A stretch of DNA of 64,000 bases from Bacteroidaceae bacterium (lineage in GTDB: Bacteria; Bacteroidota; Bacteroidia; Bacteroidales; Bacteroidaceae). Location of the stretch: assembly GCA_045629085.1 (NCBI GenBank), contig JAZQQO010000034.1:20983-84982 (forward strand). Reading direction: 5' to 3'. A program made the position numbers and the translations under genes. Shown here in pieces: positions 4,848-59,834 of the stretch (positions within the stretch are counted from its first letter, which is position 1; every line of letters begins with the position of its first letter). The notes below the pieces were generated by a model. That model was given only the letters and a program-made list of their open reading frames with translations. It did no database searches and was not told where the DNA came from.

Positions 4848-4869
4848 CCGCAGATAACGATGATTCCAA

Positions 4870-5270: not shown

Positions 5271-5276
5271 CAAACA

Positions 5277-5305: not shown

Positions 5306-5424
5306 GTATACATGCCTACATCATTGGGTAATGGGCAACAATGTGCGTCCTCTAGCGTAACAGCCATTCGCAATCGATTAGGAACGAAAATTAAGAAAAA
5401 AAAGATTTTTTTGCAAAAAAGGTT

Positions 5425-5461
5425 CACTCCTAGCAGTCTTAGGGGAAAAGTGCGCAGTAAA
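5425..5461 (+). repeat. Dispersed 38-mer repeat, copy 1
   Basis: cactcctagcagtcttaggggaaaagtgcgcagtaaa matches the reverse complement of 41003-41041 with one indel and three mismatches. It is preceded by the palindrome TTTTTTGCAAAAAA. Confidence 0.7.
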
Positions 5462-5483
5462 ATTTAGGCGAAACTGTATTCTG

Positions 5484-5762
5484 TTACTTCTTCTCTTCAG
5501 AAGCGCTATTCCATTTTCCTGTAAGATCATCCCAACGGTGATTGAAACGCCAAAGGAACGGATGGCAACCAGGACAATCACGTACTTCCTCGCCCATTTT
5601 CGTATGGAACGATTCGTGATAGGCTTCCTGATACTCCATCATACGAGAATCCTCATTCTGCAGGGGTACGAAACAGAAACACAGAAATCCCACTGTCACA
5701 ACAAAAATAGCCAAAATGCTCAACCAAAAAAGTCTTCTCTTAAAACTTTGCATATATATCAT
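5484..5762 (-). CDS. Hypothetical small single-pass membrane protein
   Basis: ORF 5484..5816, trimmed to MIYMQSFKRRLFWLSILAIFVVTVGFLCFCFV (one TM helix). The C-terminal tail carries CPGCHP. No family was recognised. Confidence 0.4.
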   Translation of the reverse strand: MIYMQSFKRRLFWLSILAIFVVTVGFLCFCFVPLQNEDSRMMEYQEAYHESFHTKMGEEVRDCPGCHPFLWRFNHRWDDLTGKWNSASEEKK

Positions 5763-5849
5763 TTTTAATTTCGGGCGCAAAATTACACAAAAAGAAAGCA
5801 ATAGGCAAACTTTCACGGGTAAAAACTTTGTAGATTAACGCATAAAAGC

Positions 5850-5857: not shown

Positions 5858-5944
5858 CACTAAATTACTCTCTAATGAGTATTTCTAACAAAATGCTTTG
5901 GGCAAAACAGCATAAATAAAAACAACATAAATAATCAAAGAAAA

Positions 5945-7126: not shown

Positions 7127-7128
7127 TA

Positions 7129-7166
7129 GACCCTCTCCCCAACCCTCCCCCATAATGGGGAGGGAG
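7129..7166 (+). repeat. GC-rich nested-hairpin element, copy A
   Basis: GACCCTCTCCCCAACCCTCCCCCATAATGGGGAGGGAG, with hairpin CCCTCCCC/GGGGAGGG. It starts 2 nt after the TAA stop at 7124-7126. Confidence 0.8.
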
Positions 7167-7264
7167 AAATTTATAGGGAATGGACTACTAAACAGCGAAT
7201 TCTGAAATTTACGAGTCAACGATTCGACCACGCAACGAGTCGTTGACTCCTAAAACACAATAAC

Positions 7265-7465
7265 ATGTTCGGAGGCGACGACATCGATGCCGTCATCATG
7301 AGCGGCATAACCTTTAAGGGCAGCGGAAAAGGCGGTCCAAAGAAGGATGAAAACAAGGTCAAGACAAAGGCCAAGAAGAAGCAGTACATAACGGGGGCAC
7401 ACGGCAGCGGCTCGGCCAAGAAGAAAGCTGAGATACGCATGAAGCGTGCCAATAGGCACAAATGA
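7265..7465 (+). CDS. Possible small Lys-rich protein (66 aa) translationally coupled to the AraC-family gene
   Basis: Its stop overlaps the next start (ATGA at 7462-7465). Codon choice (gcc, aag, ggc) resembles neighbouring genes. No family was recognised. Confidence 0.35.
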   Translation: MFGGDDIDAVIMSGITFKGSGKGGPKKDENKVKTKAKKKQYITGAHGSGSAKKKAEIRMKRANRHK

Positions 7466-27655: not shown

Positions 27656-28417
27656 CTATGGGCAATTTATCATTATTCCGTTGATGTTGCGGCCCGTCTT
27701 GATCGTCTCACGGCGGGCAGAATAAAAACCGGGGGACTGCATCGTGCAAGTGCCATCGATGTGAATCCTATGCACTCCTGCACATTCAAGGAGCCATGCG
27801 TTGGCACGCCAGAGGTCGAGATGCCATTTTTTCATTCTACGGGCAATCTGCTCCATCGGGAAGTCGGCTTCGCGAAAAGCCTCATAAACCTCATCCCCTA
27901 CCTCGAAACTATCAAGGCTGATGCCTGGCCCTATTACTGCATGAAGGTCTTCGCCACGGCTTTGCATCTCACGGATGGTGCGTTCCACAATCCTTCCTAC
28001 CGTACCTCGCCAACCGGCATGAATGGCAGCCACCAGTTGCTGACGCTCATCGTAAAGGAGAACAGGGATGCAATCAGCAGTCTTCACTGCCACACACAAG
28101 CCCGGCACTCGCGTGATGACAGCATCCGTATCAGGCAATTCGCCCGCAGTCTCTGTCCATGCCACATTCACACTATGCGTCTGGCGGGGAATGAACAAAG
28201 CCCCTCTCCCCGACCCTCCCCCGAGGGGGGAGGACGTAGATAGATCTTGACTCCCTAAAATACGGAAGGAGGAAGGAGGATTGGTTTGCTCTGCCTCATC
28301 GCACGAGGGAAAGGTAATCCCCACCTCGCGTGCATCGACACCAGGCTCTGTACCATGACAGCCCTTACCAGCGGTAAAGGCTGTCACTGTATCTGCTATG
28401 TCATAAAATATATGCAT
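27656..28417 (-). CDS. pgeF: PgeF/YfiH-family (DUF152, laccase-domain) protein carrying an in-frame repeat-element insertion
   Basis: 253 aa with family signatures PRQTHS..V, KTADCIPVLL, AAIHAGWRGT, GPGIS and CT....FYSARR. The segment ...SSPLGGGSGRGA... is encoded by GC-rich element copy B. Confidence 0.75.
   Translation of the reverse strand: MHIFYDIADTVTAFTAGKGCHGTEPGVDAREVGITFPSCDEAEQTNPPSSFRILGSQDLSTSSPLGGGSGRGALFIPRQTHSVNVAWTETAGELPDTDAVITRVPGLCVAVKTADCIPVLLYDERQQLVAAIHAGWRGTVGRIVERTIREMQSRGEDLHAVIGPGISLDSFEVGDEVYEAFREADFPMEQIARRMKKWHLDLWRANAWLLECAGVHRIHIDGTCTMQSPGFYSARRETIKTGRNINGIMINCP
28199..28234 (+). repeat. GC-rich nested-hairpin element, copy B (inside the pgeF coding sequence)
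   Basis: AGCCCCTCTCCCCGACCCTCCCCCGAGGGGGGAGG has the same architecture as copy A. The reading frame is maintained across it. Confidence 0.75.
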
Positions 28418-28510: not shown

Positions 28511-29665
28511 TTAATCCTCTATCTCGTAATCCTCCAGTTCCTCGATATCTGCATCGTCCAGAATCTCGATGTCCTCATCCTCACCCATATCCTCGAGTTC
28601 AGACTGGAGATAGCCGAGATCCTTGTTCTTATGCACGATTCGCTCGTCATCGAGAATGGCCTGCAGTTTGTTGCTTTCACTATTGAGGGCAGCCCAAAGC
28701 ACATCCTTCAGCTCCGTCAGTCCCTTGTTAGCAACGGCAGAAATGAACACGACAGGCAGGTCATCGGGCAGATCTACAGAGAGCATCTCCACCAGTTCGT
28801 CATCCAACAAGTCACTCTTCGTGACAGCCAGCACGCGCTGCTTGTCCATCAGTTCCGGGTTGAAACTTCCCACCTCGTTCAGCAGAATCTCATATTCCTT
28901 CTTGATGTCGTCCGTATCGCCAGGCACCATAAAGAGCAGCAACGAGTTACGCTCGATATGGCGCAAGAAACGAAGACCGAGTCCCCTACCCTCGCTGGCT
29001 CCCTCGATGATACCTGGGATATCAGCCATCACAAACGACTGGTTGTCGCGATAGGATACAATGCCTAAAGAAGGCTCCATCGTAGTAAAGGGATAGTTGG
29101 CAATCTTGGGTTTAGCCGATGACAAAGAACTGAGCAACGTGGACTTACCAGCATTGGGGAATCCCACCAGACCGACATCAGCCAGCAGTTTCAACTCCAT
29201 GATGACGGTAAGCTCCATCATCGGTTCGCCGGGCTGTGCATAACGGGGAGCCTGATTGGTAGAGGTGGCAAAATGGATATTACCTTGTCCGCCACGGCCT
29301 CCCTTAAGGAGCATCACCACTTCTCCGTCATGCTTCACGTCACAGATGTACTCACCCGTATCGGCATTATACACCACCGTACCGCAAGGCACGTCAATGT
29401 ACTTGTCATCGCCCTTGGCACCCGTGCTGCCACTCTTACCACCATTGCCGCCATGACCAGCAAAGATATGACGGTCGTAACGCAGGTGCAGCAACGTCCA
29501 ATAGTTGCGGTTGCCACGCAGATACACATGGCCACCGCGTCCACCATCGCCGCCATCAGGGCCACCATTAGGTGCGTACTTAGCACGATGCATGTGTGCA
29601 CTACCACGACCGCCCTTTCCTGAGCGGCACACGATCTTTACGTAATCAACGAAATTCGATTCCAT
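28511..29665 (-). CDS. obg: GTPase Obg/CgtA
   Basis: [27 protein letters not shown]... (Obg fold), G1 motif [21 protein letters not shown], and an acidic C-terminal tail. The start was set at the ATG at 29663-29665, because the 13 extra codons of ORF 28511..29704 read through repeat copy C. Confidence 0.95.
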
Positions 29666-29670
29666 CAGAA

Positions 29671-29715
29671 GACCCTCTCCGGCGCTTTGCGCCACCTCCC
29701 CCATAATGGGGAGGA
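29671..29715 (+). repeat. GC-rich nested-hairpin element, copy C
   Basis: GACCCTCTCC-GGCGCTTTGCGCC-ACCTCCCCCATAATGGGGAGGA. It begins 5 nt from the obg start codon. Confidence 0.8.
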
Positions 29716-29847: not shown

Positions 29848-29888
29848 GCCCCCTCCCCATTACGGGGGAGGGCGGGGGGAGAGGGGCC
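29848..29888 (-). repeat. GC-rich nested-hairpin element, copy D
   Basis: The reverse complement reads GGCCCCTCTCCCCCCGCCCTCCCCCGTAATGGGGAGGGGGCC. Its CCCTCTCC end lies 9 nt from the adk stop codon. Confidence 0.8.
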
Positions 29889-31056: not shown

Positions 31057-31129
31057 GCAAAAAAGTTTGAATAGACCCACATAATATATAAAAATGTGCG
31101 TCAAAACAGCAAAATGTGAGCCAAGAGTC

Positions 31130-31164
31130 GTGAATTGTGAATTATGAATTATGAATTATGAATT
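31130..31164 (+). repeat. Heptamer tandem array (5 units: GTGAATT x2, ATGAATT x3)
   Basis: gtgaattgtgaattatgaattatgaattatgaatt. It ends 8 nt before the nnr -7 box. Confidence 0.9.
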
Positions 31165-31184: not shown

Positions 31185-32723
31185 ATGAAAATACTCACTG
31201 GCACTCAACACGCGGAACTCGACCGATACACCATCGAGAATGAGCCGATAGAATCCATTGAATTGATGGAGCGTGCGTCACAAGCCATCGCACTCGAAAT
31301 CATGTCGCGATGGGACAAGCAGCGCATCGTCTACGTTTTCGCTGGAGCGGGCAACAATGGCGGAGACGGATTGGCCGTAGCACGACTACTCTACAAAGAG
31401 GGATACCGTGTGGCTGTATATCTATTTAATGTCAAAGGCCACCTGAGTCCTGACTGTTCCACCAATCGCGACAGGCTTGTGGAACTGCAGAGCGCAGAAA
31501 ACTCTGCCGAACGTCTTGTATTCAAAGAAATCACACAAGGTTTCGATTTCCCTAAGATTAACGCAAACGACATCATCATCGACGCACTCTTCGGCACAGG
31601 CCTCAAGAGTCCTTTGTCGGGAGGATTTGCCGTGGTAGCGCGCAAGATTAACGGAACTCACGCTCACATTGTCAGCATAGACATACCCAGTGGTCTGATG
31701 TGCGAGAACAATGCCTTTACAGACCGCTCCGTAGTGATTCACGCAGAACTCACGCTGAGCGTACAGTTACCCAAGTTAGCCTTCCTAATGGCTGACAACG
31801 AGATATGCGTAGGCGAGTGGAAAACTATCGACATTGGCCTTTCGGAAGAAGGCATCGCTCAGGCTAACACCCCCTACTCCATGATTGAGGAGAACGAGGT
31901 ACGCGAACTTCTTCACAAGCGCCCCGCCTTTGCCCACAAGGGCACGATGGGACATGCACTGCTTGTTGCAGGAAGTCACGGCATGGCAGGAGCGGCCATC
32001 TTGGCTGCCAAATCTTGCCTGCGCAGCGGAGTCGGCAAGTTGTCTGTACACACTTGCTCGTCTGCCAACAACATCATGCAAATCAGTGTACCTGAAGCCG
32101 TTCTCCTACTTGATAAGAACAGCCGTAACATCTCCGAGACGCTTGACATCAGCCGTTTCCAATCCATCGGCATAGGTCCCGGGATCGGACGTGACAATGC
32201 TACAGCTGAAGCCGTACAGAGTTATCTTGCCGTAGCAGATGAACCTCTTGTGGTCGATGCCGATGCCCTCAACATCCTTGGCGATCATCGCGAGTGGATG
32301 GGCCACTTGCCCAGCGGCAGTATCCTCACCCCACATGTCAAGGAACTGGAGAACATCACAGGCATTTGTGCTAACTCATATGAACGCCTCACCCAAGCCT
32401 CCGAACTGGCTGTGTCATATCATATCTATGTCATACTGAAAGGGCACTACACAGCCATCTGCACACCGCAAGGCCGTGTTCTGTTTTGCCCTAAGGGCAA
32501 TCCCGGCATGGCAACTCCTGGCAGCGGCGACGTACTGACAGGCATTCTCACTGGCCTGCTGGCACAAGGCTATCCTCCCAGCGAGGCAACCATTCTTGGT
32601 GTATGGCTCCATGCTTCAGCAGGCGACTTGGCAGCAGAGGAGTTAGGTGAGGAGTTTATGCTGGCCAGCGACATCATCACCCACCTCAGTGGAGCGTGGA
32701 AGAGATTGAAGATTGAAAATTGA
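31185..32723 (+). CDS. nnr: Bifunctional NAD(P)H-hydrate repair enzyme Nnr (YjeF_N epimerase + YjeF_C dehydratase)
   Basis: GAGNNGGDGLAVARLL (YjeF_N) and the GPGIG...GSGDVLTG kinase-like C-terminal domain. The start at MKILTG is preferred because the ATG at 31158 lies inside the heptamer array. Confidence 0.9.
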   Translation: MKILTGTQHAELDRYTIENEPIESIELMERASQAIALEIMSRWDKQRIVYVFAGAGNNGGDGLAVARLLYKEGYRVAVYLFNVKGHLSPDCSTNRDRLVELQSAENSAERLVFKEITQGFDFPKINANDIIIDALFGTGLKSPLSGGFAVVARKINGTHAHIVSIDIPSGLMCENNAFTDRSVVIHAELTLSVQLPKLAFLMADNEICVGEWKTIDIGLSEEGIAQANTPYSMIEENEVRELLHKRPAFAHKGTMGHALLVAGSHGMAGAAILAAKSCLRSGVGKLSVHTCSSANNIMQISVPEAVLLLDKNSRNISETLDISRFQSIGIGPGIGRDNATAEAVQSYLAVADEPLVVDADALNILGDHREWMGHLPSGSILTPHVKELENITGICANSYERLTQASELAVSYHIYVILKGHYTAICTPQGRVLFCPKGNPGMATPGSGDVLTGILTGLLAQGYPPSEATILGVWLHASAGDLAAEELGEEFMLASDIITHLSGAWKRLKIEN

Positions 32724-32745
32724 AAAATGAAGATTGAAAATATGA
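32704..32745 (+). repeat. Heptamer tandem array (6 units, GATTGAA family) spanning the nnr stop and the next gene start
   Basis: gattgaa gattgaa aattgaa aaatgaa gattgaa aatatga. The nnr TGA (32721-32723) and both candidate ATGs of the next gene (32727, 32742) lie inside it. Confidence 0.85.
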
Positions 32746-46590: not shown

Positions 46591-47481
46591 ATGAATAAAA
46601 AGATGAAGAATATGAAAAAGATACTCTTTATGATATGTGCAGCGATGGTAGCATTCACATCCTGCATGAACGACAAGGACGCAGAGGTCGTTCCCGTAAA
46701 CCAATTCACGGCGAAGGGACTACCTGCTCCCACGACAACGATTTCAAAGATCAGGTCAAACTACAGCAGTGTCATCAGCAACAACAACAGCCAGAAGTTC
46801 ACAACGGACGAGGTGTTCGACGGCATCGTAGTTGCCAACGACATTTCGGGCAACATCTACCAGTTTATCTACCTGCAGGGCCTCAATGCCGATGGCAGCA
46901 TCAACACTGACGAGGGCGGCATCGCCGTAGGCGTCAAGGGCCTCGGCTGTCTCTACACCATCTTCCCCGTTGGTCAGCAGGTACGTGTCAACCTCAAAAA
47001 CCTCTATGTGGGTGGCTACGGAGCATCACCTCGTATCGGACTGCCCTACGTCAACACAAACGGCGCCATCCGTCTGGGTCCCATGACACTCCCCTACCTC
47101 TCCACCAACATCGAACTCATTGGCACACCACATCCTGAACTGGTGGTGGCACGCGAGACGACAGGCGAGGAAATCAACAATCCCAACACATTGAACAAGC
47201 TCTCACCCATGTTGGTAGTGCTGAAAAATGCAGAGATTGCCGATGCCGGCTGGCCCTACGCACACTGGGAAGTCGGTGGCGACACATACTCAGAGTACCA
47301 CGACATTAAGATTGGTAGTACTGTCGTGAAGCAGCTGCTCTATACCTCAACAAGTGCCACCTTTGCGGGTGACACCATCAAGGCTGGCAAGAAGACCATT
47401 TACGGTCTGCTAGGCAAGTACTCTTCTTCTCCCCAGCTCTCTATCCGTTCGCTCGACGACATCATCGAGTTGGGAAAATGA
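46591..47481 (+). CDS. Lipoprotein with OB-fold-like domain (tentatively DUF5689-like)
   Basis: Lipoprotein signal (...MVAFTSC). The segment DGIVVANDISGNIYQFIYLQ...VGQQVRVNLKNLYVGGYG resembles OB-fold barrels seen in extracellular nucleases. It starts 7 nt after the receptor gene. Confidence 0.55.
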   Translation: MNKKMKNMKKILFMICAAMVAFTSCMNDKDAEVVPVNQFTAKGLPAPTTTISKIRSNYSSVISNNNSQKFTTDEVFDGIVVANDISGNIYQFIYLQGLNADGSINTDEGGIAVGVKGLGCLYTIFPVGQQVRVNLKNLYVGGYGASPRIGLPYVNTNGAIRLGPMTLPYLSTNIELIGTPHPELVVARETTGEEINNPNTLNKLSPMLVVLKNAEIADAGWPYAHWEVGGDTYSEYHDIKIGSTVVKQLLYTSTSATFAGDTIKAGKKTIYGLLGKYSSSPQLSIRSLDDIIELGK

Positions 47482-47538
47482 AGGTTGAAGATTGAAGATT
47501 GAAGATTGAAAATTGAAGGTTGAAAATTGAAAATTGAG
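47476..47538 (+). repeat. Heptamer tandem array (9 units, GATTGAA family), the longest in the window
   Basis: aaatgaa ggttgaa gattgaa gattgaa gattgaa aattgaa ggttgaa aattgaa aattgag. The stop codon of the preceding gene (47479-47481) is in the first unit. Confidence 0.9.
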
Positions 47539-47552
47539 AAAATAATACAATC

Positions 47553-49835
47553 ATGAAAAAGATATTTAACTTACTGCTTTCTGCAGTAGCCGTCATCGGC
47601 ATCACCACATCATGCTCTGATGTACCCGCTCCCTATGACATCAATCAGGGAGGTGAAATTTCATTCGGAAAAGTAATGCCCTATAAGAGCGCCAGCCTTA
47701 GCACAGGATGGACAACAAACAAACTGTCAGAGAACGAGCCCTGGAGCCAAGGTAGCAGTTACACGCAGGCCACTGGCTATCAGGACTGGGACGGCGCTGG
47801 TTCAAAGACCAACAAAGAGGTAGAGGGTTACCTCATCTCCCCCGCCCTCAACACCAAAAGCGAGAGCGGAAAAGCCAAGTTCTCATTCGACTACACCATC
47901 AAGTACACCAACAATGTTAGCGACTGGCAAAGTAGACACAAGATTCTGATTTCAAAGAACTACGACGGCAAGGAGTTCAAGCCTGAGCAGTGGGAGGAGC
48001 TGAACTGGGTCGGTACGGCAAGCCCTTACAGCGACTGGACTTTGTACAGCAGCGGGGACATTCAGATTCCCGAGGCTTACACAAACAAGGACAGCATCTA
48101 CGTTGCCTTCCACTTCAGTGCTCCCGCAAGTTCTTCTACCACTTGGGAACTTATGAATTTCCTTATCCAAGAGGGTGAAGCAGACAACACTGACGGTCCG
48201 GCACCTGGTGGCGATAGCAGCAAAGAAGCACCCTACACAGTAGCAGAAGCCAAAGCAGCAACCGGTACTGGTTATGTGAAGGGTTACATCGTCGGCTATA
48301 TCGATGGTCAGAAGCTGGAAGAGGGTGCAAAGTTCGAGGTTCCTGCTGCTGCAGAGACTGAGATTCTTATTGCAGATGACCCCAATGAGACTAATGCCAG
48401 CAACACATTCCCCGTACAATTGCCTGCAGGTGATATCCGCTCAGCACTTGAGCTCTCGGCACATCCTGACTACCTCAAGAAGGAAGTCATCCTGTATGGT
48501 TCTATCGAGACCTACTTTGGCGTGCCAGGCTTGAAGGCAACTTCATGGGCTAGCATTGACGGCAAGGAATATGGTAAGGACCCTGAAGGTGTAGAGACTC
48601 CCGGAACTCCCGAGGGTACCGGTACACTTGAGGATCCCTACAACGTGGCAGGTGTCATCGCATACATCAACACACTGGGTGCTGACAAGGAATCAGACAA
48701 GGCTGTATATGTGAAGGGTAAGGTTGCAAGCAACACCACCACCGAAGCCACCATCTCGCAGTATGGCAACATGACCTTCACCATCGTGGATGAGGGCAAC
48801 TCTACTACCTTCACCGCATTCCAGGTTTATGCTCCCGGAAACGTCAAGTTTACCGCAGTTGACCAAATCAAGGTAGGCGATGAGGTAGTCATCTACGGTA
48901 AGGTGGTCAACTACAAGGGCAACATACCCGAGACCGTTGGCAAGGGTCAGGCATACGTGGTTTCTATCAACGGCAAGAGCGAGGAAGGTGGCAATACCGG
49001 TGGTAACGAAGGCGATGCACAGCACATCACTATTGCCAAGTTCCTTGAGCTGGCAGACCCCAATACCACATACGAGCTCACAGGTACAGTAAAGAATATC
49101 AAGAACACCACATATGGCAACTTTGACCTCGTTGACGAAACCGGTTCTGTATACATCTATGGTCTGCTCGACTTGGAGGGCAAAAACAAGAACTTCGCAA
49201 GCTTAAACATCACAGAAGGTGACGAGGTTACCCTCAAAGGTAAATACAAGGACTACAACGGCACAGCTGAGATTGCTGACGCCCAATTCATCAGCGTAAA
49301 GAAGGGCGACGGTGGCAACACCACACCCGACGACGGTGGTAACACTGGCGGTGACAACACTGGTGCCTCTACTCTGGAGAACGGCGACTTCGAGTCATGG
49401 GTCAGCAGCACCGAGCCCACAGGTTGGAAGAGTGCTTCTACCGCAAGCAACGCTAAGTTAAGCCAGTCTACCACCGCTCATGGTGGCAAATACGCAGTAG
49501 AGGTAGAAGGCAACGAAACCAGCAACAAGCGTTTGGCTTCTCAGGAGATTACCCTCGAGGCTGGCACTTACACCTTCTCGTTCTATGCCAAGGCCAAGGA
49601 GGCAGGTAAATCACAGGTACGTCCCGGATACGTTCCTGTAACCGACGGCAAGGTGGGCAGCTATATGTATGGCGATTATGCTACACTGAACAATGACGAG
49701 TGGACACTCGTAACCTATGAGTTTACCCTCAATGCCAAGAGCACCATTTGCCTCGTTATCATGAATCCCAAGAAGTCTGATTACTCTGACGGCAAGCCCG
49801 CATTAATCGATGATGCTACGTTGACGAAAAAATAA
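47553..49835 (+). CDS. Large surface lipoprotein (760 aa) with OB-fold nucleic-acid-binding-like domains and a C-terminal CBM-like domain
   Basis: Lipoprotein signal (...GITTSC). OB-fold-like segments include YELTGTVKNIKNTTYGNFDLVDETGSVYIYGL...VTLKGKYKDYNGTAEI. Domains are joined by Gly-Asn-Thr linkers. The C-terminal jelly-roll-like region is NGDFESW...IDDATLTKK. Confidence 0.65.
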   Translation: MKKIFNLLLSAVAVIGITTSCSDVPAPYDINQGGEISFGKVMPYKSASLSTGWTTNKLSENEPWSQGSSYTQATGYQDWDGAGSKTNKEVEGYLISPALNTKSESGKAKFSFDYTIKYTNNVSDWQSRHKILISKNYDGKEFKPEQWEELNWVGTASPYSDWTLYSSGDIQIPEAYTNKDSIYVAFHFSAPASSSTTWELMNFLIQEGEADNTDGPAPGGDSSKEAPYTVAEAKAATGTGYVKGYIVGYIDGQKLEEGAKFEVPAAAETEILIADDPNETNASNTFPVQLPAGDIRSALELSAHPDYLKKEVILYGSIETYFGVPGLKATSWASIDGKEYGKDPEGVETPGTPEGTGTLEDPYNVAGVIAYINTLGADKESDKAVYVKGKVASNTTTEATISQYGNMTFTIVDEGNSTTFTAFQVYAPGNVKFTAVDQIKVGDEVVIYGKVVNYKGNIPETVGKGQAYVVSINGKSEEGGNTGGNEGDAQHITIAKFLELADPNTTYELTGTVKNIKNTTYGNFDLVDETGSVYIYGLLDLEGKNKNFASLNITEGDEVTLKGKYKDYNGTAEIADAQFISVKKGDGGNTTPDDGGNTGGDNTGASTLENGDFESWVSSTEPTGWKSASTASNAKLSQSTTAHGGKYAVEVEGNETSNKRLASQEITLEAGTYTFSFYAKAKEAGKSQVRPGYVPVTDGKVGSYMYGDYATLNNDEWTLVTYEFTLNAKSTICLVIMNPKKSDYSDGKPALIDDATLTKK

Positions 49836-51625: not shown

Positions 51626-54541
51626 ATGTCAAAGAAGTTTTCTATTTTCTTGGCCATGCTTGTGTGCGTAATTGTCGCGTACGCCATTCCTGCAGCCAAT
51701 GTCACACTAACACATACCCAGAAGGACGGCACTGTGCTCACCCTCCGACTGGTCGGTGACGAGCACATGCACTACTACCTTAATGTAGCTACAGGCCAAG
51801 CTATGCGCAAGGGTGCTGACGGTGATTTTGTGGTGATATCAAGTGCCGAGTTATCAGCCAAGGCAGAGCAGGCAGCGGTACGCAGAGCCAATGTCAACCG
51901 CCAGCGTGTGGCTCGTCTGCCTTTGGCAAAGCAGCAGGCAAGGGAAGGCATGCGCAAGATAGGTACGATTGACAAGAACCTGTCGGGCAACAAGAGCGTG
52001 CTTGTGCTGCTCGTGGCATTCAGTGATAAGACTTTCACGGGTTCTCAGTCAGACTTCGACAACCAGTTCAATCAGCAGAACTACAGTGCTAATAGCCACA
52101 TCGGTTCGGTACACGACTATTTCTACGACCAGAGTTATGGCGCTCTCAACCTCTCGTTTGATGTCTATGGCCCCATCACATTGAGTAACACCATGGAGTA
52201 TTATGGTGCCAATGATGCTAATGGTGATGATGTTCGTCCACGTCAGATGGTGAAGGAAGCAGTACAAAAAGCGAATACTTCATACGATATTGATTTCACG
52301 AAATACGATTGGGACAACGATGGCAAGGTTGACCAGGTGGTTGTCATCTATGCTGGTTATGCAGAGTCGCAGGGTGCTCCTGCTAACACCATCTGGCCCC
52401 ACCAGTGGGAATTATCGGGTATTGGTACTTTGTCGGGCACTACGTATGATAATAAGACCATCAACAGTTACGCCTGCCTTTCGGAGTTGAAAGGTAAGAC
52501 TGGCAGCACCCGCGATGGTATCGGTACTTTCTGCCACGAGTTCAGCCACTGTCTCGGTTTGCCCGACTTCTACGACACCAACTATTCCACCGATGGCACA
52601 GCCAACGACATGTCGTACTTCGATGTGATGGCAGCAGGTTCATACAATGGTTCGAACAACGCTGTGCCTTGTGGCTACACGGCCTACGAGCGTTGGCAGT
52701 TCGGATGGGTGACACCTACCGAACTCAGCGAGGCTGCCACCATTACGGGTATGAAGCCTTTGAACGATGCAAATCCCGATACCTACGTCATCTACAACAA
52801 GAGGAACAACAACGAGTACTTCCTGTTGGAGAACCGTCAGAGCAATCGTTGGTTCAAGTACAGCAGCACCTATACGGCTGGTCATGGTCTCTTCATCACC
52901 CACTGCAACTATGTAAGCAGTTACTGGACAAACAATACCATCAATGCCACTGCAGGCAACGAGCATTTCGTCTACGTTCCCGCCAACAGTACATATGGAA
53001 CATCGTCAACAAATATGCAGAATGCCTTCTTCCCTGCAGGTGCTACATCGTTTACCGATGACACACATGCCTCTTGTGGTGGTGCCCTTTGGACCAACAA
53101 CAGCGATGGCACGAAGAAGCTTGGTGTACCCATCACCGATATTGCCGAAAGCAATGGCTTAATCTCCTTCGATGTCTTGGGTGGTATGCACGATGATGGT
53201 TCTCGCTACACCGTGACCCTCGATGCATGTGGCGGTAGCGTCAGCCAAACTTCATGGACGCAAACCACTTACAAGCAGTCGTGGTCGCTGCCAGAGCCAA
53301 CCACCACCGTTGTTGGATGGGAAGGTACAGGATGGTCGCTTACTAAAATTGACAGCAATACACCTTTGGATGATGTGGAATTGATTGATTTTGGTTCTAG
53401 TAAACCATACACTCCAGAGAGCGATGTCACCCTGTATGCTGTTTACTACAACGAGGACTTCATTTGCAACAGTTATCCCGTCAACACCCACTACACCGTC
53501 ACCTTCGATGCAGGTGCTGGAACATGCGCTACTACCAGCTGGACACAGACTGACCAGCAGCAGAAGACTACCCTTCCCACTGCAACCATCAGCCTCGACG
53601 GATGGTCATTCGCAGGTTGGGCTACAACAAGTGCTACTGAGACATTAGCCAAGCCTTCTCTCCTTGCTGCAGGTGCTGACTATACCCCCGCTGCTGACGT
53701 TACGCTCTATGCCGTATACAAAAAGAGCACAGGCGGTAATGGCAAGATCTCTTCCGTAGATGAGATTACCGATGGCGACCAATATGTATTCGTAATCTCG
53801 GATGGCACCACATCATACGCCGTTCAGCAGGATGCAAGCAACAACTTCGTTTCATTTACTGAGTCTGACGAGTTCGCTTCCTCTATCATCTGGACGGCTG
53901 CAACTGCAACAAATGGTTTCTCATTCAAGTGCAACAGCAAGTATCTCTACAATAGCGGCGACAACACAACCATCAATGCTGCCAGTGCAACTGCTACTGA
54001 TTGGGTATTCACCTCACTTGGAAACAACCTGTTCAAGATGCAGAGAGCCAACACCTCTGGCCGCTATATGGGTTGGAGTGGTTCTAAGTTTGCAGCGTAT
54101 GCTAATAACAACTTCGTAAATCAGGTTGCGACATCTGCCACTTTAGCACAATATGCCGGTGCGCTTTATATTTATAAAATAGGTGGCAGTACCACCTACA
54201 ACTCCAACCCACAGCCCGAAGTGACTCCCGATCCCGAACCCGGTGACGGTGGTGACGACGATGCAGATGATGATCCTGTTGTCCCAGTAGAACCAGGCAC
54301 CACCGCCCTCTACTTCCCCCACATCGCCAAGTTGGGGCAACCCTTCACCGCACCAGCCTTCAACACCAACAGCGATGGAGCACAGACATGGGCCAGCAGC
54401 AACACCGATGTTGCCGATGTGGACGACAAAGGCCACGTGACCATCAAAGCCGTGGGTACCACCATCATCACGGTTACCCAGGCAGAGACAGCCACCTACA
54501 AGCAAGGCACTGCCAGCTACATGATCAAAGTAGTGGAGTAA
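51626..54541 (+). CDS. Secreted M6-family (immune inhibitor A-like) zinc metalloprotease with Flg_new repeats and a C-terminal Big_2-like domain
   Basis: 971 aa with a signal peptide and the HEFSHCLGLPDFYD zinc motif. Two Listeria-Bacteroides repeats end ...TLYAVYY and ...TLYAVYKK. The Big_2-like end is ...TNSDGAQTWASSNTDVADVDDKGHVTIKAVGTTIITV. No T9SS tail was recognised. Confidence 0.8.
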   Translation: MSKKFSIFLAMLVCVIVAYAIPAANVTLTHTQKDGTVLTLRLVGDEHMHYYLNVATGQAMRKGADGDFVVISSAELSAKAEQAAVRRANVNRQRVARLPLAKQQAREGMRKIGTIDKNLSGNKSVLVLLVAFSDKTFTGSQSDFDNQFNQQNYSANSHIGSVHDYFYDQSYGALNLSFDVYGPITLSNTMEYYGANDANGDDVRPRQMVKEAVQKANTSYDIDFTKYDWDNDGKVDQVVVIYAGYAESQGAPANTIWPHQWELSGIGTLSGTTYDNKTINSYACLSELKGKTGSTRDGIGTFCHEFSHCLGLPDFYDTNYSTDGTANDMSYFDVMAAGSYNGSNNAVPCGYTAYERWQFGWVTPTELSEAATITGMKPLNDANPDTYVIYNKRNNNEYFLLENRQSNRWFKYSSTYTAGHGLFITHCNYVSSYWTNNTINATAGNEHFVYVPANSTYGTSSTNMQNAFFPAGATSFTDDTHASCGGALWTNNSDGTKKLGVPITDIAESNGLISFDVLGGMHDDGSRYTVTLDACGGSVSQTSWTQTTYKQSWSLPEPTTTVVGWEGTGWSLTKIDSNTPLDDVELIDFGSSKPYTPESDVTLYAVYYNEDFICNSYPVNTHYTVTFDAGAGTCATTSWTQTDQQQKTTLPTATISLDGWSFAGWATTSATETLAKPSLLAAGADYTPAADVTLYAVYKKSTGGNGKISSVDEITDGDQYVFVISDGTTSYAVQQDASNNFVSFTESDEFASSIIWTAATATNGFSFKCNSKYLYNSGDNTTINAASATATDWVFTSLGNNLFKMQRANTSGRYMGWSGSKFAAYANNNFVNQVATSATLAQYAGALYIYKIGGSTTYNSNPQPEVTPDPEPGDGGDDDADDDPVVPVEPGTTALYFPHIAKLGQPFTAPAFNTNSDGAQTWASSNTDVADVDDKGHVTIKAVGTTIITVTQAETATYKQGTASYMIKVVE

Positions 54542-54574
54542 AGATTAACGATATACATACCAAGAACATACACC

Positions 54575-55942
54575 ATGCCACTTACCCCTGAGCAAATAGC
54601 CAAGATACGCAAGAAGCAGCAGGAAACGCCTGATGCCTTGAAGCGTAATCCGCTCAATGACTACATTGAGGGGTGGTTTCATGTGACGCTCAACGTGCAT
54701 GGCGAATCCCCCGTATTGGGCTACATAGCAGGCGATGCCGATGCACCCGATGACAGTGCGAATGCACCTCGCTGCGTACTGACGGAACTGGGGGAGAAGG
54801 TAGAGGCAGAATGGCGAGGAATAGGAAGATATTATCCCGAATGTATATGCGAAGAGATGCAGGTGATGCCTGAGCATATCCATGCACTGATGCATCTTCT
54901 GCCTACTAACAATGCGCATCTTGGGCGCATAATCAACGGCTTGATGATTGGCTGTACCCATGCCTATTGGGACATGCTGGGCATACCATGGCGAGAAATG
55001 CGGCAGCAAATAGACGAAGCGCTTAAGCGTCTAAATAGCGGTACCCCCGACCAAACGTCCACCAAGGAGCTGGAGAAAGCGCTGCGGGCGCAGTGGCAGG
55101 ACCGCGACCATACGCACTCTTTCCGTGGCCCCTCGCTCCTCGTCCATGGCTACAACGATGTGGAGGCGATAGATGATGAGGAGATAGAGATCAAGCGGCA
55201 GTATATCCGCAACAACCCACGCAAGCGCCTGATAAAGCGTGACAAGCCCGATTGCTTCCGCATCCATCGCAACAAGAAGAGCACCAACTGGACGCCCGAG
55301 CGCATCATGCAGGGCCTTTGTGCTGACCGCTTCATCGCTGCCAACCGCAGCAAGCAGGAGGAGGCATGGCAACAGATGACCGTCAAAGGCATCAGCAACA
55401 ACCGAGGAAGGGTGAGCGCTACGCTCCATTTCCAGGACGATCGTCCCGTTCTCGACCTTGTGGGCAATCATGAGTTGCTGAACCGTCCACTCTTCCCGCT
55501 CATCTGCCATCGTGCCGACGCCCATCTCTTCGAGCAGCAGAAAGAACAGGTGCTGAAGGCAGCAAGAGAACAAGGCGGCGTTATCGTTACCGCTTGTGTC
55601 AGCCCTAAGGAACGTACCATCGTGAAACTGCTGCAACAGGAACTGCTCCCGGTCATAGAGGTCATGGACAATGGTTTCAGCGACCGCTACAAACCCACTG
55701 GCAAGGCGTTCTATGCCGTGGCAGAAGGCCGCAGGCTGGAGGTCTCGCCCTGGGAATACGAATACCGCCGCCGCGAGTTGCAACCCGTGAAGGACGAACA
55801 AGGCAACCCCATCCTTGATGCCAGCGGCAAACCAGAGATGGAGGCAGTCCCCGACATCACTCGCGAGATGTGCATGGTCATGAACGAACTGGTACGCACG
55901 ATAGCGAGGAAAGAAGACGACTGGTGGAAGGACACCGTATAA
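54575..55942 (+). CDS. Fusion protein: N-terminal RAYT / IS200-like HUH Y1 domain and C-terminal DprA/SLOG-like Rossmann domain
   Basis: 455 aa. The N-terminal part has GWFHVTLNVHG, VMPEHIHALMHL (HUH) and RQYIRNNPRKR (Tyr + NP block). The C-terminal segment VGNHELLNRPLFPLICHR...AAREQGGVIVTACVSPKERT...VIEVMDNGFSDRYKP...GRRLEVSPWE is colinear with DprA (GN.ELL..P.iAIVGsR...G..iVSG.A.GiD...iaVl..G.d..YP...G.llSE). Confidence 0.6.
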   Translation: MPLTPEQIAKIRKKQQETPDALKRNPLNDYIEGWFHVTLNVHGESPVLGYIAGDADAPDDSANAPRCVLTELGEKVEAEWRGIGRYYPECICEEMQVMPEHIHALMHLLPTNNAHLGRIINGLMIGCTHAYWDMLGIPWREMRQQIDEALKRLNSGTPDQTSTKELEKALRAQWQDRDHTHSFRGPSLLVHGYNDVEAIDDEEIEIKRQYIRNNPRKRLIKRDKPDCFRIHRNKKSTNWTPERIMQGLCADRFIAANRSKQEEAWQQMTVKGISNNRGRVSATLHFQDDRPVLDLVGNHELLNRPLFPLICHRADAHLFEQQKEQVLKAAREQGGVIVTACVSPKERTIVKLLQQELLPVIEVMDNGFSDRYKPTGKAFYAVAEGRRLEVSPWEYEYRRRELQPVKDEQGNPILDASGKPEMEAVPDITREMCMVMNELVRTIARKEDDWWKDTV

Positions 55943-56026
55943 TGTCGATAACCACTCATCGTAGTGCATCGTCATCCTACAGAAACATATCGAAACAATA
56001 TATTTTATTAATTAAAACAAATTATT

Positions 56027-59000
56027 ATGAAACAAAAATTATTAAAAACATGGCTCATGCTATGTCTACTGCTCGTGGGAGCAGGGACGAGCAGGGCGGA
56101 GGAGGTGACAGCCTTCAATTGGTCAAGTATGGGTAATACCAACACTATTACCAGTGGCTATACTACTACTAGTTTGGGCGCATCGGCAAAAGATGGTTAT
56201 TACCAGGATAATTCAACAAACGTCTCTCTGACAGGTTACAATAAAACTACTCCTATGTTTACTTCTACTCCAAATAAGGTTACTATAGAAGTAAAATTAG
56301 GTGGTGGTACTGCAAAGAAACAACTTGCTAATGCTGTATATGCGCAGTTTGTTGATCAACGTGGCGATGTTATCGGCAATGCTATAGAAATTACAAGTTA
56401 TATTACAACCGCAGCGGGTGATGTCTATACAAAAGAAATGAATCTTACAGGCATTACAACTGCATATGGAATAAAAATAACGCACACAAAAGAGGATGGA
56501 TACAATGTTCGCTACTATAATTTATCCTTAAAATATACGACTTCAGGTGGTGGCTCAACTCCTACTACTCCCATTGATGCCTCATGGTCAGTGTCTCCAG
56601 AAAATGTTTCTGTAATGGCACGTAGGACAGCCACTGTGGCAATTACCACCAACTATGACGGAACTCTTTCTGTGTCATCTGAGAATTCTGGTGTAGCAAT
56701 AGCTACTATCAGCGGTAAAGTAATAACTGTTACCGGTGTTGCAGAAGGTTCCACAACCCTTACTGTAACTGGCGATGCAACTTCTTTTTACAATGCTATT
56801 AGCAAGACTATTAATGTGGCAGTTTCAGCGCGCCCTGCCAATGAAATCTTCTACGAGTCATTCGATACTAACACCGGCACTGGTGGCAATGACAATCTAT
56901 GGAGTGGCATCAATACTGGCTCCACACCCAAAATCGATAACACAGGCTGGATATTTACTAAAGCTTATGGTGCTAATCAATGTGCAAGATTCGGAACAGG
57001 ATCTGATTTAGGCAAAGCTATTACCCCAGATCTTGCTTACAGAGGCACTGCCAAACTCACCTTCAAGGCAGCCGCATGGGATGGCTCAAGCGAAAAAACA
57101 ACTCTCAAACTGTCAGTCAATCAAGGAACAATTTCCCCGGCAACAGTCACTTTGAAAAAAGGTGAATGGACAACCTACGAGGTAACACTTGAGAATAACA
57201 CACAATTTGATCAAAAGATAACATTTGAAGGGAACAGCACATCCAACAGCCGCTTCTTCCTTGATGAAGTCTCTGTAATCAAAACCGGCGAGGCCAAGAC
57301 ACTCGACCACATCAACGTAACAGGTGCCAAGACACTCTACAAGGTTGGTGAGACATTCTCGACCGATGGTATGACGGTTACGGCATATTATGATGCAGAG
57401 GAAAACGACAGCAAGACAATCAGCACAGGTTATACCGTAAGTAAGACAGAAGCACTCACTGCCGAAGACAACACAATCACCATCTCGTACACAGAGGGTG
57501 AGGTAACTAAGACGGCAGACGTAGCCATCAATGTGGTGGCCCTCGAGAACATTGCTATTACCACCGCTCCCACCAACACTAGCTACACCGAAGGTCAGGA
57601 CTTCGACAAGACGGACATGGTAGTAACTGCAACATGGGGTACAACGGCTCCCAACATTATTGAGGAGCCAATCGAGGATTACAACGTAATCGATGGAACT
57701 GGCCTTGCAGCCGACCAGACCAGCGTGACAATTTCTTACGACGGCAAGGAAACAACTCAGGCAATCACCGTCACCGCTTTGCCTCGCTATACTCTTCACA
57801 TCACCCCCACCACGGATGGGACTGTGTACACCGTCAAGGCTGGTGACCAAGTATTGAGCGAGGGTGCTCAGATTCTTTATGGCACCAATTTGACTTGCGA
57901 GTGCGATGAGAGCACCGTACCTGAGGGATACTACTTCAGCCGCTTCTACATTGACTTTGGTGGCGACAAGGAACGTTATATGAGTTCTAACCCCGCTACA
58001 TTTACCACCCAGATTCCCACAGAAGGCTTCACCGAGCTTACCGTTCGTTGCAGCATTCTCGAGCAGAAGCGTTATACTGTTCACTTTGATGCACAAGCTG
58101 GTTATGTTAAGCCCAAGCTCCTTACCGAAACGGCATTCCAGAGCGGTGTGGTACTGCCTGAAGCAACTTGTGAAAACGCCCTTTGGCAATTCGCTGGTTG
58201 GGCAGCAGAGGCAACGGCCGAGACAAATACTGCTCCCGAACTTTATAAGGCAGGAGATACATACAAGCCTACAGAATCCACAAAACTCTATGCGGTGTAC
58301 AAGCAGGGGACCGAGAGCGGTGAGACCGCATTCAACCGCGTGACCGACATCAGCAAACTGACCGACGGGAAGAAGGTGGTTGTTGTAAGTAATGCAACAG
58401 ACAAGGCTTTAACGTTGTCTGCTGGCGATGATAATCAGTACACAGATGCGAACACCATATCTATGTCTGATCCTAAGAAAATTTGGACGTTAACAAAAAG
58501 CGATAATGAATACACATTTATAGACAATCAATCTACTCCAAAAACCATGGCAACAAATGGTGTTCCTGGCGCAGGAGCAAACATGACATACATTGGAGCA
58601 AAAGGTAGCACAAGAACCTACACAACATGGATTATTTCGGAATCAAGCGTTGAAGATTGTTGGGTAATTACTAATAAAGTTGAAAAGAATGAAACTACTT
58701 TAACAAATTCTGCATTAACGGTTGGTACTAATACAAGCGGAAATACACAATGGGGAGCTATAAATTTTGACGACAGTAATGGTCCTCGTGACGCGTCTGT
58801 TTTCGCCATGCGCATCTACGTTGAAGGTCCTGCGACCTCTATCACCTACAACTCTAACCCCGAGTTCACTCTGTTGGCATTCGACGAGGCAAACACCGCC
58901 ATTACCGGCGAGAACAAGAGTTATAACCGTGTGACCGTAACCCGTGCACTCAAGGCTGACACTTGGAACAGCTTCTGCGTTCCCTTCGACATGAGTGAAG

Positions 59001-59578
59001 AGCAGATTGAAGATAACTTTGGCGCTGGTGCCCAGTTTAAGCAGCTGGATAACATCAGCTTGAAGAACGGCGAGAACCTCTACCTCACTTTCACCGACGC
59101 AGCAACCATCGAGTGCGGTAAGCCCTATCTGATTCGCGTCAGCGAGGCTATACCCGAGATTGTGGTTCACAACACATCTGTTAACATCGCTGAGCCCACA
59201 GCTGTGGCACCAACCTGCCAGAACGATGACAAGAGCACTACATACACTGTATCCTTCCAGGGCAACTACACAAAGATGAGCGTTCCCATGGATAGCTACA
59301 TCATCAGCAGCGATAAGTTCTATCACGTGGACTCAGACCTCACTATGAAGGGCTTCCGCGGCTACTTCACAACTACGGCTACCGACAACAGCGGCAACGA
59401 GGCCAAAGCACTTGGCCTGACCATCGGATTCGAGGATCCCGCCACGGCTGTAGAGAACGTGATCGTAGGAGGACTGGATGACGATGCTCGTATCTATGAC
59501 ATGCAGGGACGTGTGGTAACTCGTATGCAGAAGAACCACATCTACATCAAGAACGGCCGTAAATTCCTCGCAAAGTAA
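56027..59578 (+). CDS. Large T9SS-sorted surface protein (1183 aa) with Ig-like (Big_2/Big_3-type) domains and a Flg_new repeat
   Basis: Signal peptide, then Big_2-like SVSPENVSVMARRTATVAITTNYDGTLSVSSENSGVAIATISGKVITVTGVAEGSTTLTV and repeated Ig-like segments (LDHINVTGAKTLYKVGETF...). The Flg_new-type repeat ends ...KLYAVYKQ. The tail is ARIYDMQGRVVTRMQKNHIYIKNGRKFLAK. Confidence 0.8.
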   Translation: MKQKLLKTWLMLCLLLVGAGTSRAEEVTAFNWSSMGNTNTITSGYTTTSLGASAKDGYYQDNSTNVSLTGYNKTTPMFTSTPNKVTIEVKLGGGTAKKQLANAVYAQFVDQRGDVIGNAIEITSYITTAAGDVYTKEMNLTGITTAYGIKITHTKEDGYNVRYYNLSLKYTTSGGGSTPTTPIDASWSVSPENVSVMARRTATVAITTNYDGTLSVSSENSGVAIATISGKVITVTGVAEGSTTLTVTGDATSFYNAISKTINVAVSARPANEIFYESFDTNTGTGGNDNLWSGINTGSTPKIDNTGWIFTKAYGANQCARFGTGSDLGKAITPDLAYRGTAKLTFKAAAWDGSSEKTTLKLSVNQGTISPATVTLKKGEWTTYEVTLENNTQFDQKITFEGNSTSNSRFFLDEVSVIKTGEAKTLDHINVTGAKTLYKVGETFSTDGMTVTAYYDAEENDSKTISTGYTVSKTEALTAEDNTITISYTEGEVTKTADVAINVVALENIAITTAPTNTSYTEGQDFDKTDMVVTATWGTTAPNIIEEPIEDYNVIDGTGLAADQTSVTISYDGKETTQAITVTALPRYTLHITPTTDGTVYTVKAGDQVLSEGAQILYGTNLTCECDESTVPEGYYFSRFYIDFGGDKERYMSSNPATFTTQIPTEGFTELTVRCSILEQKRYTVHFDAQAGYVKPKLLTETAFQSGVVLPEATCENALWQFAGWAAEATAETNTAPELYKAGDTYKPTESTKLYAVYKQGTESGETAFNRVTDISKLTDGKKVVVVSNATDKALTLSAGDDNQYTDANTISMSDPKKIWTLTKSDNEYTFIDNQSTPKTMATNGVPGAGANMTYIGAKGSTRTYTTWIISESSVEDCWVITNKVEKNETTLTNSALTVGTNTSGNTQWGAINFDDSNGPRDASVFAMRIYVEGPATSITYNSNPEFTLLAFDEANTAITGENKSYNRVTVTRALKADTWNSFCVPFDMSEEQIEDNFGAGAQFKQLDNISLKNGENLYLTFTDAATIECGKPYLIRVSEAIPEIVVHNTSVNIAEPTAVAPTCQNDDKSTTYTVSFQGNYTKMSVPMDSYIISSDKFYHVDSDLTMKGFRGYFTTTATDNSGNEAKALGLTIGFEDPATAVENVIVGGLDDDARIYDMQGRVVTRMQKNHIYIKNGRKFLAK

Positions 59579-59794: not shown

Positions 59795-59834
59795 GCAGAA
59801 CCGCTGGGGCATAGCCTCGGCGGTTCGCTTTTTT
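59795..59834 (+). terminator. Rho-independent terminator of the M6/RAYT/adhesin operon
   Basis: Stem GCAGAACCGC / GCGGTTCGC (9 bp with one bulge) followed by TTTTTT. Confidence 0.75.

Follow-up and report, generated by a model that had tools for sequence, protein, structure and literature searches.

A class-2 (RAYT-like) Y1 HUH domain joined to a trimmed DprA-like domain in a protein family of gut Bacteroidales

The present analysis concerns one gene in a 64,000-nucleotide (64-kb) stretch of DNA (hereafter the window) from a Bacteroidaceae bacterium (GenBank assembly GCA_045629085.1, contig JAZQQO010000034.1, positions 20,983 to 84,982). This gene, which we call HUH-DprA, is a complete open reading frame (ORF; 54575..55942, + strand) of 455 amino acids (aa), in which a RAYT-like Y1 HUH domain is followed by a linker and a DprA-like domain. 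Unless a numbered locus (L001 and so on) is named, positions are window coordinates and residues are those of the window protein. We favor, at a probability of roughly 0.6, the reading that an intact class-2, RAYT-like HUH endonuclease of single-stranded DNA (ssDNA) has been combined with a trimmed DprA-like domain, and that the gene behaves as a rarely mobile, lone cassette of ∼1.3 kb; within this reading, catalysis and protein-driven mobility are inferred. The HUH-DprA proteins represent a previously undescribed subclass and domain architecture within the class-2 Y1 HUH proteins. An initial annotation, made from the DNA letters without database searches, had already proposed the fusion, and the motif landmarks that it quoted were all found in the window protein, in the order and at the positions given there.

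As judged from sequence comparison and a structural model, the N-terminal half is an intact class-2 (RAYT-type) Y1 HUH domain. Conservation was examined in two sets, 38 close relatives (alignment A1) and 102 diverse relatives (25–66% identity). An N-terminal leader (residues 1–30, 54575..54664; helix 5–17, predicted local distance difference test score (pLDDT) ∼63), whose R24 and Y30 are at least 90% conserved family-wide, precedes the first HUH-core strand GWFHVTLNV (residues 33–41, 54671..54697), which is modelled as a strand over the same residues and includes T38 (at least 90% conserved). The HUH motif PEHIHALMH (residues 99–107, 54869..54895) provides H101 and H103, metal ligands by analogy, and the Tyr helix RQYIRNNPRKR (residues 208–218, 55196..55228; modelled helix 201–212) carries Y210. 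All these features, like those of the C-terminal half, lie on the + strand. H101, H103 and Y210 were invariant across the 38 close relatives. Among the 102 diverse relatives, H101 and H103 were the only invariant columns, and Y210, N214 and P215 were each at least 90% conserved; conservation of the catalytic His and Tyr residues, on which the initial annotation had made its proposal depend, was thus borne out. The motif Y---NP is the signature of all class-2 (TnpA-REP-like) proteins and Y---Q that of IS200/IS605 (Quentin et al., PMC6006769), and the window motif YIRNNP fits the class-2 form.

Profile searches and structure prediction both upheld the proposed RAYT/Y1 fold. Family profiles aligned PEHIH (99–103) with the HUH motif of ISDra2 TnpA. 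The NCBIfam RAYT model NF047646 (REP_Tyr_transpos) was matched by 99 of the 102 relatives at E ⩽ 0.01 (best 5.5e-17), and Pfam Y1_Tnp (PF01797) by 49 of them at E ⩽ 0.1 (best 3.2e-7). The window protein itself reached E = 0.097 and 12.5 bits against NF047646 (model cut-off 80 bits) and E = 0.18 and 12.4 bits against PF01797 (gathering cut-off 23), both matches being sub-threshold and centred on the HUH motif. In the full-length AlphaFold (AF2) model (pLDDT 85.9, predicted template modelling score (pTM) 0.79), the DprA-like domain is predicted to pack against the HUH core. A Foldseek search with this model returned 2xm3, 2a6m, 2vjv, 2ec2, 2f4f and 4er8 (probability ∼1.0, target template modelling score (TM) 0.41–0.63), which cover the TnpA proteins of ISDra2, ISHp608, Sulfolobus and IS200 and the RAYT of E. 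coli (4er8). The HUH-to-Tyr spacing is 107 residues in the window protein versus ∼60 in TnpA, so that the extra piece amounts to ∼45–50 aa. The insertion claimed earlier is therefore present, but smaller than the ∼60 aa given for it; it lies at about residues 136–186 (54980..55132), is rich in indels in A1 and is modelled as two helices (pLDDT 55–77).

The C-terminal half is, on modelling and profile grounds, DprA-like in fold, yet outside the curated DprA family, and it is probably DprA-like in ancestry as well. It begins with a linker sub-domain (residues 222–292, 55238..55450; helices 241–269), whose end is a hypervariable low-complexity loop in homologues, with inserts of up to ∼60 aa. The trimmed DprA/ShosA-like Rossmann domain follows (residues 293–455, 55451..55939), as recognized by fold search and family profile, with the motifs GNHELLNRPLFPLICHR (297–313), GGVIVTAC (334–341), VIEVMDNGFSDRYKP (360–374) and GRRLEVSPWE (385–394). 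The best PDB match of the full model overall was ShosA (8zva, E = 3.8e-4), and the same search also returned DprA of H. pylori, R. palustris and S. pneumoniae. When residues 222–455 were modelled alone (pLDDT 89, pTM 0.86), the 13 best PDB matches were all ShosA or DprA, with 8zva first and nothing else credible (E 1.6e-3 to 0.1, TM 0.31–0.36, ∼115 aligned residues). In addition, the profile of the 102 relatives matched S. pneumoniae DprA (SpDprA, 3uqz) with E = 0.0018, in an alignment that is colinear from the GN..LL strand through the G..YP loop and places R313 over the GSR arginine. The colinearity with the DprA Rossmann domain described in the initial annotation was thus upheld, for a core that is trimmed: it ends ahead of the last beta-alpha units of DprA, and ∼115 of ∼205 residues superpose.

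The DprA domain contains two ssDNA-binding motifs, G-S/T/A-R in the loop beta3-alpha3 and F/L/Y-x-x-R-N/D in helix alpha6 (Wang et al., PMC3950713), and R52 of motif 1 is essential (PMC3950713). Opposite motif 1, the window protein has C311-H312-R313 (55505..55513), in which the Arg alone is kept; R313 is invariant among the 38 sequences of A1. The G.A.G.D stretch of DprA is replaced by SPKER (55601..55615), with E346 at least 90% conserved family-wide, and the substitution of TACVSPKE for SG.A.G.D, noticed earlier, was seen again in the alignment with SpDprA. The last helix, REMCMVMNELVRTIA (55862..55906), takes the place of motif 2 ([FLY]xxR[ND]) and reads C-M-V-M-N at 433–437, where the Arg is lost and N437 alone is kept (at least 90% conserved); the register against E. 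coli Smf was placed by eye, and the assignment of motif 2 is inferred. No Pfam or NCBIfam model covers the C-terminal domain, and Pfam DprA (PF02481) was matched by 1 of the 102 relatives only (E = 1.1e-3). No significant similarity could be observed between E. coli Smf and the hidden Markov model of the family C-terminus. The P-G-G-x-G-T-x-x-E motif of LOG/SLOG proteins (PF03641) is absent from the window protein, and neither Pfam nor Foldseek gave a LOG match. Since ssDNA is bound by both DprA (PMC3950713) and ShosA (PMC11961720), the C-terminal domain may also bind it.

The family is large. Altogether, 659 close homologues, nearly all full-length, and 1,076 clusters at 50% identity (E ⩽ 1e-3) were found, and no source names any of the family members that were looked up. 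Scanning one genome per GTDB species yielded 71 loci, all from gut Bacteroidales assemblies (Prevotella, Bacteroidaceae and Paludibacteraceae, from horse, ruminant and human samples) except one bin labelled Oscillospiraceae. The latter locus (L037, CAVAHD010000021.1) carries a 43%-identity member, by mis-binning or by transfer beyond Bacteroidales. By tblastn, no match was found in 72,556 plasmids, 50,697 phage records or IMG/VR. Assemblies contain one to three copies; paralogues are 64–81% identical, none being near-identical, and are nearer to each other than to the window protein, with DNA homology coextensive with the ORF. Two cases place paralogues on a single contig (L026/L029, and two copies in L001). 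Flanking DNA was shared, as synteny, within L014/15, L041/42/44, L049/52, L050/51 and L053/57. Full-text searches recovered no description of a RAYT-like HUH domain fused to a DprA-like domain in the searchable literature, in agreement with the initial annotation, which knew of no such fusion. The 2018 survey of TnpA-Y1 proteins distinguished 12 subclasses, none with a DprA-type domain and none with a median length above 325 aa (Quentin et al., PMC6006769).

The family was compared with its closest known systems. The four criteria of Bertels et al. (PMC5581495) for telling a domesticated RAYT from an insertion sequence (IS) were applied: copy number (one to three per assembly), near-identical duplicates (none) and plasmid carriage (none) resemble RAYTs, and the fourth, abundant flanking 16-mers (none, those flanking the gene being unique within the window), is unlike a RAYT associated with repetitive extragenic palindromic (REP) elements. 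With RAYT/TnpA-REP proteins such as that of E. coli, the HUH-DprA proteins further share the HUH motif and a Tyr in a Y---NP helix; in contrast, they lack flanking REP or REPIN elements, are confined to Bacteroidales, score below the equivalog cut-off and are ∼270 residues longer (insertion, linker and DprA-like domain). TnpA-Y1 subclasses 2.1 and 2.3 (PMC6006769) also combine a class-2 core with a conserved C-terminal add-on and no flanking REP, and subclass 2.3 occurs as multiple divergent copies per genome. However, their add-ons are DnaA-C/HTH-like or subclass-specific, their median length is at most 325 aa versus 390–560 aa for HUH-DprA, and they are found in Proteobacteria and others. 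IS200/IS605 TnpA proteins (ISHp608, ISDra2) have the same catalytic fold and were among the best structural matches, whereas Y---Q, subterminal hairpins at both ends, many identical copies and frequent pairing with tnpB are all missing here; the statement that the gene is not an IS200/IS605 unit therefore stands. With DprA/Smf (PF02481), the family shares the colinear Rossmann core and the position of the pocket arginine (R313), but its motif 1 is C-H-R, its motif 2 has no Arg, and it lacks a SAM or winged-helix domain. ShosA/PsyrA (8zva), the best structural match, is likewise a DprA-like ssDNA-binding module outside natural transformation, in defence contexts; the HUH-DprA protein differs in having no ShosT-like partner and no SAM domain, and in being fused to a nuclease. 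ShosA is the DprA-like antitoxin of the ShosTA defence system and is thought to promote recombinational repair (PMC11961720).

Evidence on mobility came from two related operons. L060 is arranged as Dcm, McrB-like, McrC-like (DUF2357/PD-(D/E)xK), HUH-DprA and Vsr, and L029 as Dcm, McrB-like, HUH-DprA and McrC-like. The McrB-like (69% aa) and McrC-like (87% aa) proteins are orthologous, and the HUH-DprA genes are 86% identical but placed differently. In L060 the McrB|McrC junction is empty and tight, reading TAATAACGAATGGAACTACTG. The same junction in L029 is filled by a unit of 1,339 bp, which consists of ∼105 nt of 5′ region, the ORF and ∼20 nt and is bracketed by a 10-bp direct repeat, AACGCATGGA, at positions 5886 and 7225; the genes to either side are intact. 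Directly after the McrC stop codon, L029 retains 64 nt of the vsr 3′ end as a remnant, whereas in L060 vsr comes after the unit. The simplest reading of these alignments would be that a discrete promoter-plus-ORF unit was relocated within the operon. No direct repeat beyond chance-level 8–9-mers was seen where other members of the L022/L060 subfamily are inserted. In L029 and L060, the right end of the unit comes ∼6–20 nt past the stop codon. A small stem close to the left end, CCGTAAAG-N8-CTTTGACGG, is common to five units of this subfamily and occurs nowhere else in ∼1 Mb of sequence; with five sequences and one compensatory pair, this candidate stem is only a lead. An 11-codon mini-ORF, MVG[T/A]FRKVIRL-stop, overlaps it ∼100 nt 5′ of the main ATG (L022 5888–5923; L073 5886–5921; L060 5885–5920), its frame being lost in L029 and L025. 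In L060, the last ∼21 bp of the McrC-like gene (GTAATTGACAAtGTGTAAATA) are tandemly duplicated, 5 nt apart, just upstream of the unit (5785–5835); GTAATTGACAAtGTGTAAATA is single copy in L029, and the duplication may have been left behind when a unit was inserted or excised at an earlier time.

Under the favored reading, H101 and H103 would bind a divalent metal in the N-terminal core, and Y210 would cut ssDNA to form a 5′-phosphotyrosyl link, followed by strand transfer or re-ligation, as in the TnpA proteins of IS608 and ISDra2 and in RAYTs. The C-terminal Rossmann domain would most likely grip ssDNA by the active site via the R313 pocket, as HpDprA does with R52, and it may recruit recombination proteins, possibly RecA. 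The cassette of ∼1.3 kb, a short promoter region plus the ORF, would mostly be inherited stably, with occasional duplication or relocation between co-directional genes and, as regards restriction-modification (R-M) loci, a preference or a functional link.

Several points weigh against this reading. The window protein by itself is sub-threshold for all curated models. The likeness to DprA is marginal (TM ∼0.3–0.36), neither of the two degenerate DprA motifs is kept in full and E. coli Smf escaped detection, so that ssDNA binding by the C-terminal domain is putative. No DNA substrate (hairpin) was identified for the protein. Mobility is read from one clean filled/empty pair and indirect patterns, and to our knowledge Y1 HUH transposition generates no target duplication, so that the 10-bp repeat may reflect another mechanism: it may derive from microhomology-mediated rearrangement, from a transposase acting in trans or from a genuinely new reaction. 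Finally, most of the genomes are metagenome-assembled and binning may affect copy numbers, but the L026/L029 and L001 pairs each lie on a single contig.

The genomic context offers a different view. Of 61 copies, 16 lie among R-M genes of various types or at a distance of two to three genes from them, in the same direction, and these copies reach down to 26% identity. In addition to L060 and L029, HUH-DprA is followed by Vsr in L022, L073 and L028, and it lies in the order hsdM, hsdS, HUH-DprA, hsdR in L053, L057 and the locus of a 26%-identical paralogue in L001 (hsdR was not recovered on the short L053 contig). Only ∼9 nt separate HUH-DprA from vsr in L022, L028 and L060, and in L073 the ORFs of both genes overlap. 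The L001 paralogue (14709–16007, 25–26% identical, between hsdS and hsdR) carries QPSCTEQ low-complexity repeats in its loops, and the first copy lies on the same contig at 10001–11233. R-M genes make up ∼1% of genes, and the R-M neighborhood looks enriched when judged against this general figure; because of shared ancestry, the independent cases number ∼10–12. In one lineage only, a type V-A CRISPR array (Cas12a-Cas4-Cas1-Cas2) precedes homologues of 74–77% identity (L074–L077) by ∼300 nt; the array has 19 repeats in L076 (array 4516–5710; gene 6001–7407) and a single repeat in L074. The recurrent place in type I and Dcm/McrBC-like/Vsr operons suggests a tie to defence islands or to their mobility.

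Such a context could mean that location is function, that is, that a host or a defence island has domesticated the protein to work with R-M systems, for example, by nicking or processing ssDNA and promoting, with the DprA-like domain, a RecA-dependent repair of the damage that self-restriction causes, or by assisting or backing up R-M operons. This explanation, which we consider unlikely, gains from the R-M and Cas12a neighborhoods, from the very short or overlapping junctions with vsr and from the fact that the closest structural match, ShosA, is a defence antitoxin. However, about three-fourths of the copies, that of the window included, lie among unrelated housekeeping or surface-protein genes. 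The place within orthologous operons also varies, being before McrC in L029 and after McrC in L060, which argues for insertion rather than for a fixed module. In PADLOC, no known defence protein was matched except PsyrA, weakly, by 1 of the 102 relatives (E = 0.0019), and no locus had a ShosT-type phosphoribosyltransferase neighbor. It should also be noted that the R-M neighbor frequency was set against a general figure of ∼1%. A related proposal would make the gene a single-gene mobile cassette or defence-island accessory, in which the DprA-like module binds ssDNA and recruits RecA, and which either inserts itself at gene junctions with short direct repeats or processes DNA for R-M operons (for example, by repairing or alleviating self-restriction). 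We regard it as doubtful; if true, either form would add an undescribed mechanism to those of HUH enzymes.

The initial annotation had itself advanced another explanation, in which the protein is a RAYT that mobilizes the GC-rich, REP-like hairpins of the window. RAYTs mobilize REPs and REPINs in Proteobacteria, and the proposal is in line with the RAYT-type N-terminal domain and with the over-representation of a hairpin in the window just after stop codons: CCTCCCC-N-GGGGAGG gave 4 exact-pattern matches versus 0.01 expected (7144–7163, 28215–28233, 29695–29714 and 29852–29871), and a variant lies at 63175–63194. Extended copies (29663–29714 and 63145–63194) sometimes have a second small stem ahead. 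The elements are thus real and non-random, although 4–5 copies in 64 kb hardly make the window rich in them, as had been said. On the other hand, 7 to 47 kb separate them from the gene, with the closest exact copy ∼24.7 kb upstream (29852) and the closest variant ∼7.2 kb downstream (63175). The motif is present in 5 of 81 loci only and never adjoins the HUH-DprA gene; with the flanking 16-mers of the gene unique in the window, the link between protein and hairpins was not supported. No REPtron arrangement was found in ∼60 loci, and REPs are missing as well from other class-2 subclasses whose C-terminal domain is large (PMC6006769). Mobilization of these hairpins by the protein is therefore very improbable; the hairpin family could be a terminator or REP-like element of the window genome, unrelated to the HUH-DprA gene.

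Other candidate elements around the gene gave similar results. An all-against-all comparison of 250-nt flanks revealed no element common to the loci beyond syntenic pairs, and Rfam showed no known RNA around the gene. A 26-mer in L041 and a hairpin in L018, considered as bracketing repeats, were traced to intergenic motifs of a generic kind or to terminators reused in those genomes. Intergenic tandem arrays of 6–9-nt units just after stop codons occupy ∼30% of the intergenic regions of the Bacteroidales loci, each genome having its own unit; in the window they are of the GATTGAA type (32703–32741, 47461–47555, 61341–61379 and 62342–62380) and the GTGAATT type (31108–31164 and 62917–62952), and others occur in L041 (376, 1530 and 2833), L017, L023, L034, L049 and L059. 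As a candidate substrate they were rejected, not being enriched beside the gene (19 of 76 versus 68 of 228, p = 0.47). The L061 copy has G-rich repeats on both sides (5880–6000 and 7143–7400), with GGGGGGG and GGGAGGAGGGGGGCGCGGTCG units and exact 20-nt matches between upstream and downstream; it is the sole locus with such flanking repeats.

The window copy lies between genes for large secreted proteins, and its setting has to be considered in the same light. The upstream neighbor is an M6 metalloprotease gene (51626..54541, +; Peptidase_M6 E = 8e-22) and the downstream one a secreted adhesin-like gene (56027..59578, +; 1,183 aa), both incidental. The gene does sit between them as had been described, but at distances of 33 and 84 nt, instead of 34 and 85 nt. 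The upstream spacer (54542..54574, +) contains no promoter box or hairpin, and the AT-rich downstream spacer (55943..56026, +) no terminator or hairpin; neither has inverted repeats, and ssDNA folding of both flanks on both strands was no better than that of shuffled sequences (z = 0.04, 1.06, 0.77 and −0.91). TAnnTTTG, the Bacteroidetes-type −7 box, is absent from the + strand over 54092–59014, two such boxes lie upstream of the M6 gene (51516 and 51544), and the first terminator-like site downstream of the HUH-DprA gene comes after the adhesin gene (59798–59826). Box, terminator, repeat and folding searches thus confirmed that this copy has no promoter, terminator, hairpin or flanking inverted repeat of its own, and with two boxes 5′ of M6 it is probably transcribed by readthrough from the M6 promoter. 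Many homologues carry a TAnnTTTG box 15–30 nt 5′ of the ATG, which the window copy lacks, and the gene therefore usually has its own promoter. Across loci, 43 of 55 upstream neighbors point the same way as the HUH-DprA gene, at short gaps, compared with only 26 of 56 downstream neighbors; the gene tends to close a run of co-directional genes or to lie inside one. A repeat region of ∼190 aa with 32% identity (Listeria-Bacteroides repeat/Flg_new type) is common to the adhesin and the M6 protease, which on this basis are modular relatives. An antisense ORF (55031–55975, −; 314 aa) covers most of the HUH-DprA gene and is most likely spurious, because family conservation and all homology lie on the + strand.

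It might be supposed that the gene has a function within surface-protein loci, for example, by initiating recombination that varies large secreted proteins. The window copy and distant members in L078/L079 and L080 are co-oriented between large ORFs that look signal-peptide-bearing; the latter are giant (2,469, >3,600 and >3,355 aa; L078/L079 492–7901 and 9286–17185, L080 1–7881), and those whose N-termini lie in the locus start signal-peptide-like. Neighbors of at least 700 aa are also more frequent than among other locus ORFs (27% versus 7%), a comparison in which ORFs cut short at the locus ends introduce a bias. However, proteins that flank the gene in one locus are not homologous to those in another, the giant neighbors in L078 and L080 have no informative Pfam domains, and the excess of signal-peptide-like neighbors was not significant (27% versus 20%, p = 0.14). 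The surroundings of the window genes showed neither silent cassettes nor inverted repeats. Across 69 loci there was no conserved neighbor, the largest neighbor-protein cluster occurring in 7 of 69, and the two genes on either side mostly belong to unrelated housekeeping Pfam families. The closest M6 orthologue (L082, 83% aa) has no HUH-DprA gene beside it, and its similarity to the window ends exactly at the M6 stop codon; an orthologue in L084 (61%) likewise lacks the gene. The search for an empty site of the window copy gave the left boundary only, from the M6 orthologue, and retrieved no adhesin orthologue. Since no neighbor is conserved and M6 orthologues occur without the gene, the M6/adhesin setting is incidental: the claim of a secreted-protein operon holds for the physical arrangement but not for a functional meaning, and the operon setting is, as far as these alignments indicate, a lineage-specific insertion (or a loss elsewhere) and not a functional association. 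A role in surface-protein loci thus appears most improbable.

A decaying relic, that is, a transposase fragment without catalytic activity that was joined accidentally to a second ORF, would explain the sub-threshold scores of the window protein and the missing promoter of this copy, but it has next to no credibility, being contradicted by the conservation pattern: the ORF is intact, the full-length two-domain architecture is kept in hundreds of clusters, the catalytic residues are conserved (H101 and H103 invariantly) and the model is confident with a high pTM.

The HUH-DprA proteins thus form a large unannotated family in abundant gut bacteria, in which one polypeptide permanently combines a nuclease with a relative of DprA and ShosA, proteins that bind ssDNA and promote RecA-dependent recombination. 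The filled and empty sites of L029 and L060, with the 10-bp repeat, provide a starting point toward the DNA substrate. HUH enzymes serve as covalent DNA-tagging tools, and a version with built-in ssDNA binding may therefore have practical value. Class-2 Y1 HUH proteins, that is, RAYTs and their relatives, are widespread, but few have an established role in the cell, and a substrate has been proposed only for those associated with REPs. The HUH-DprA architecture provides a concrete, testable hypothesis for the role of a REP-less RAYT-like protein.

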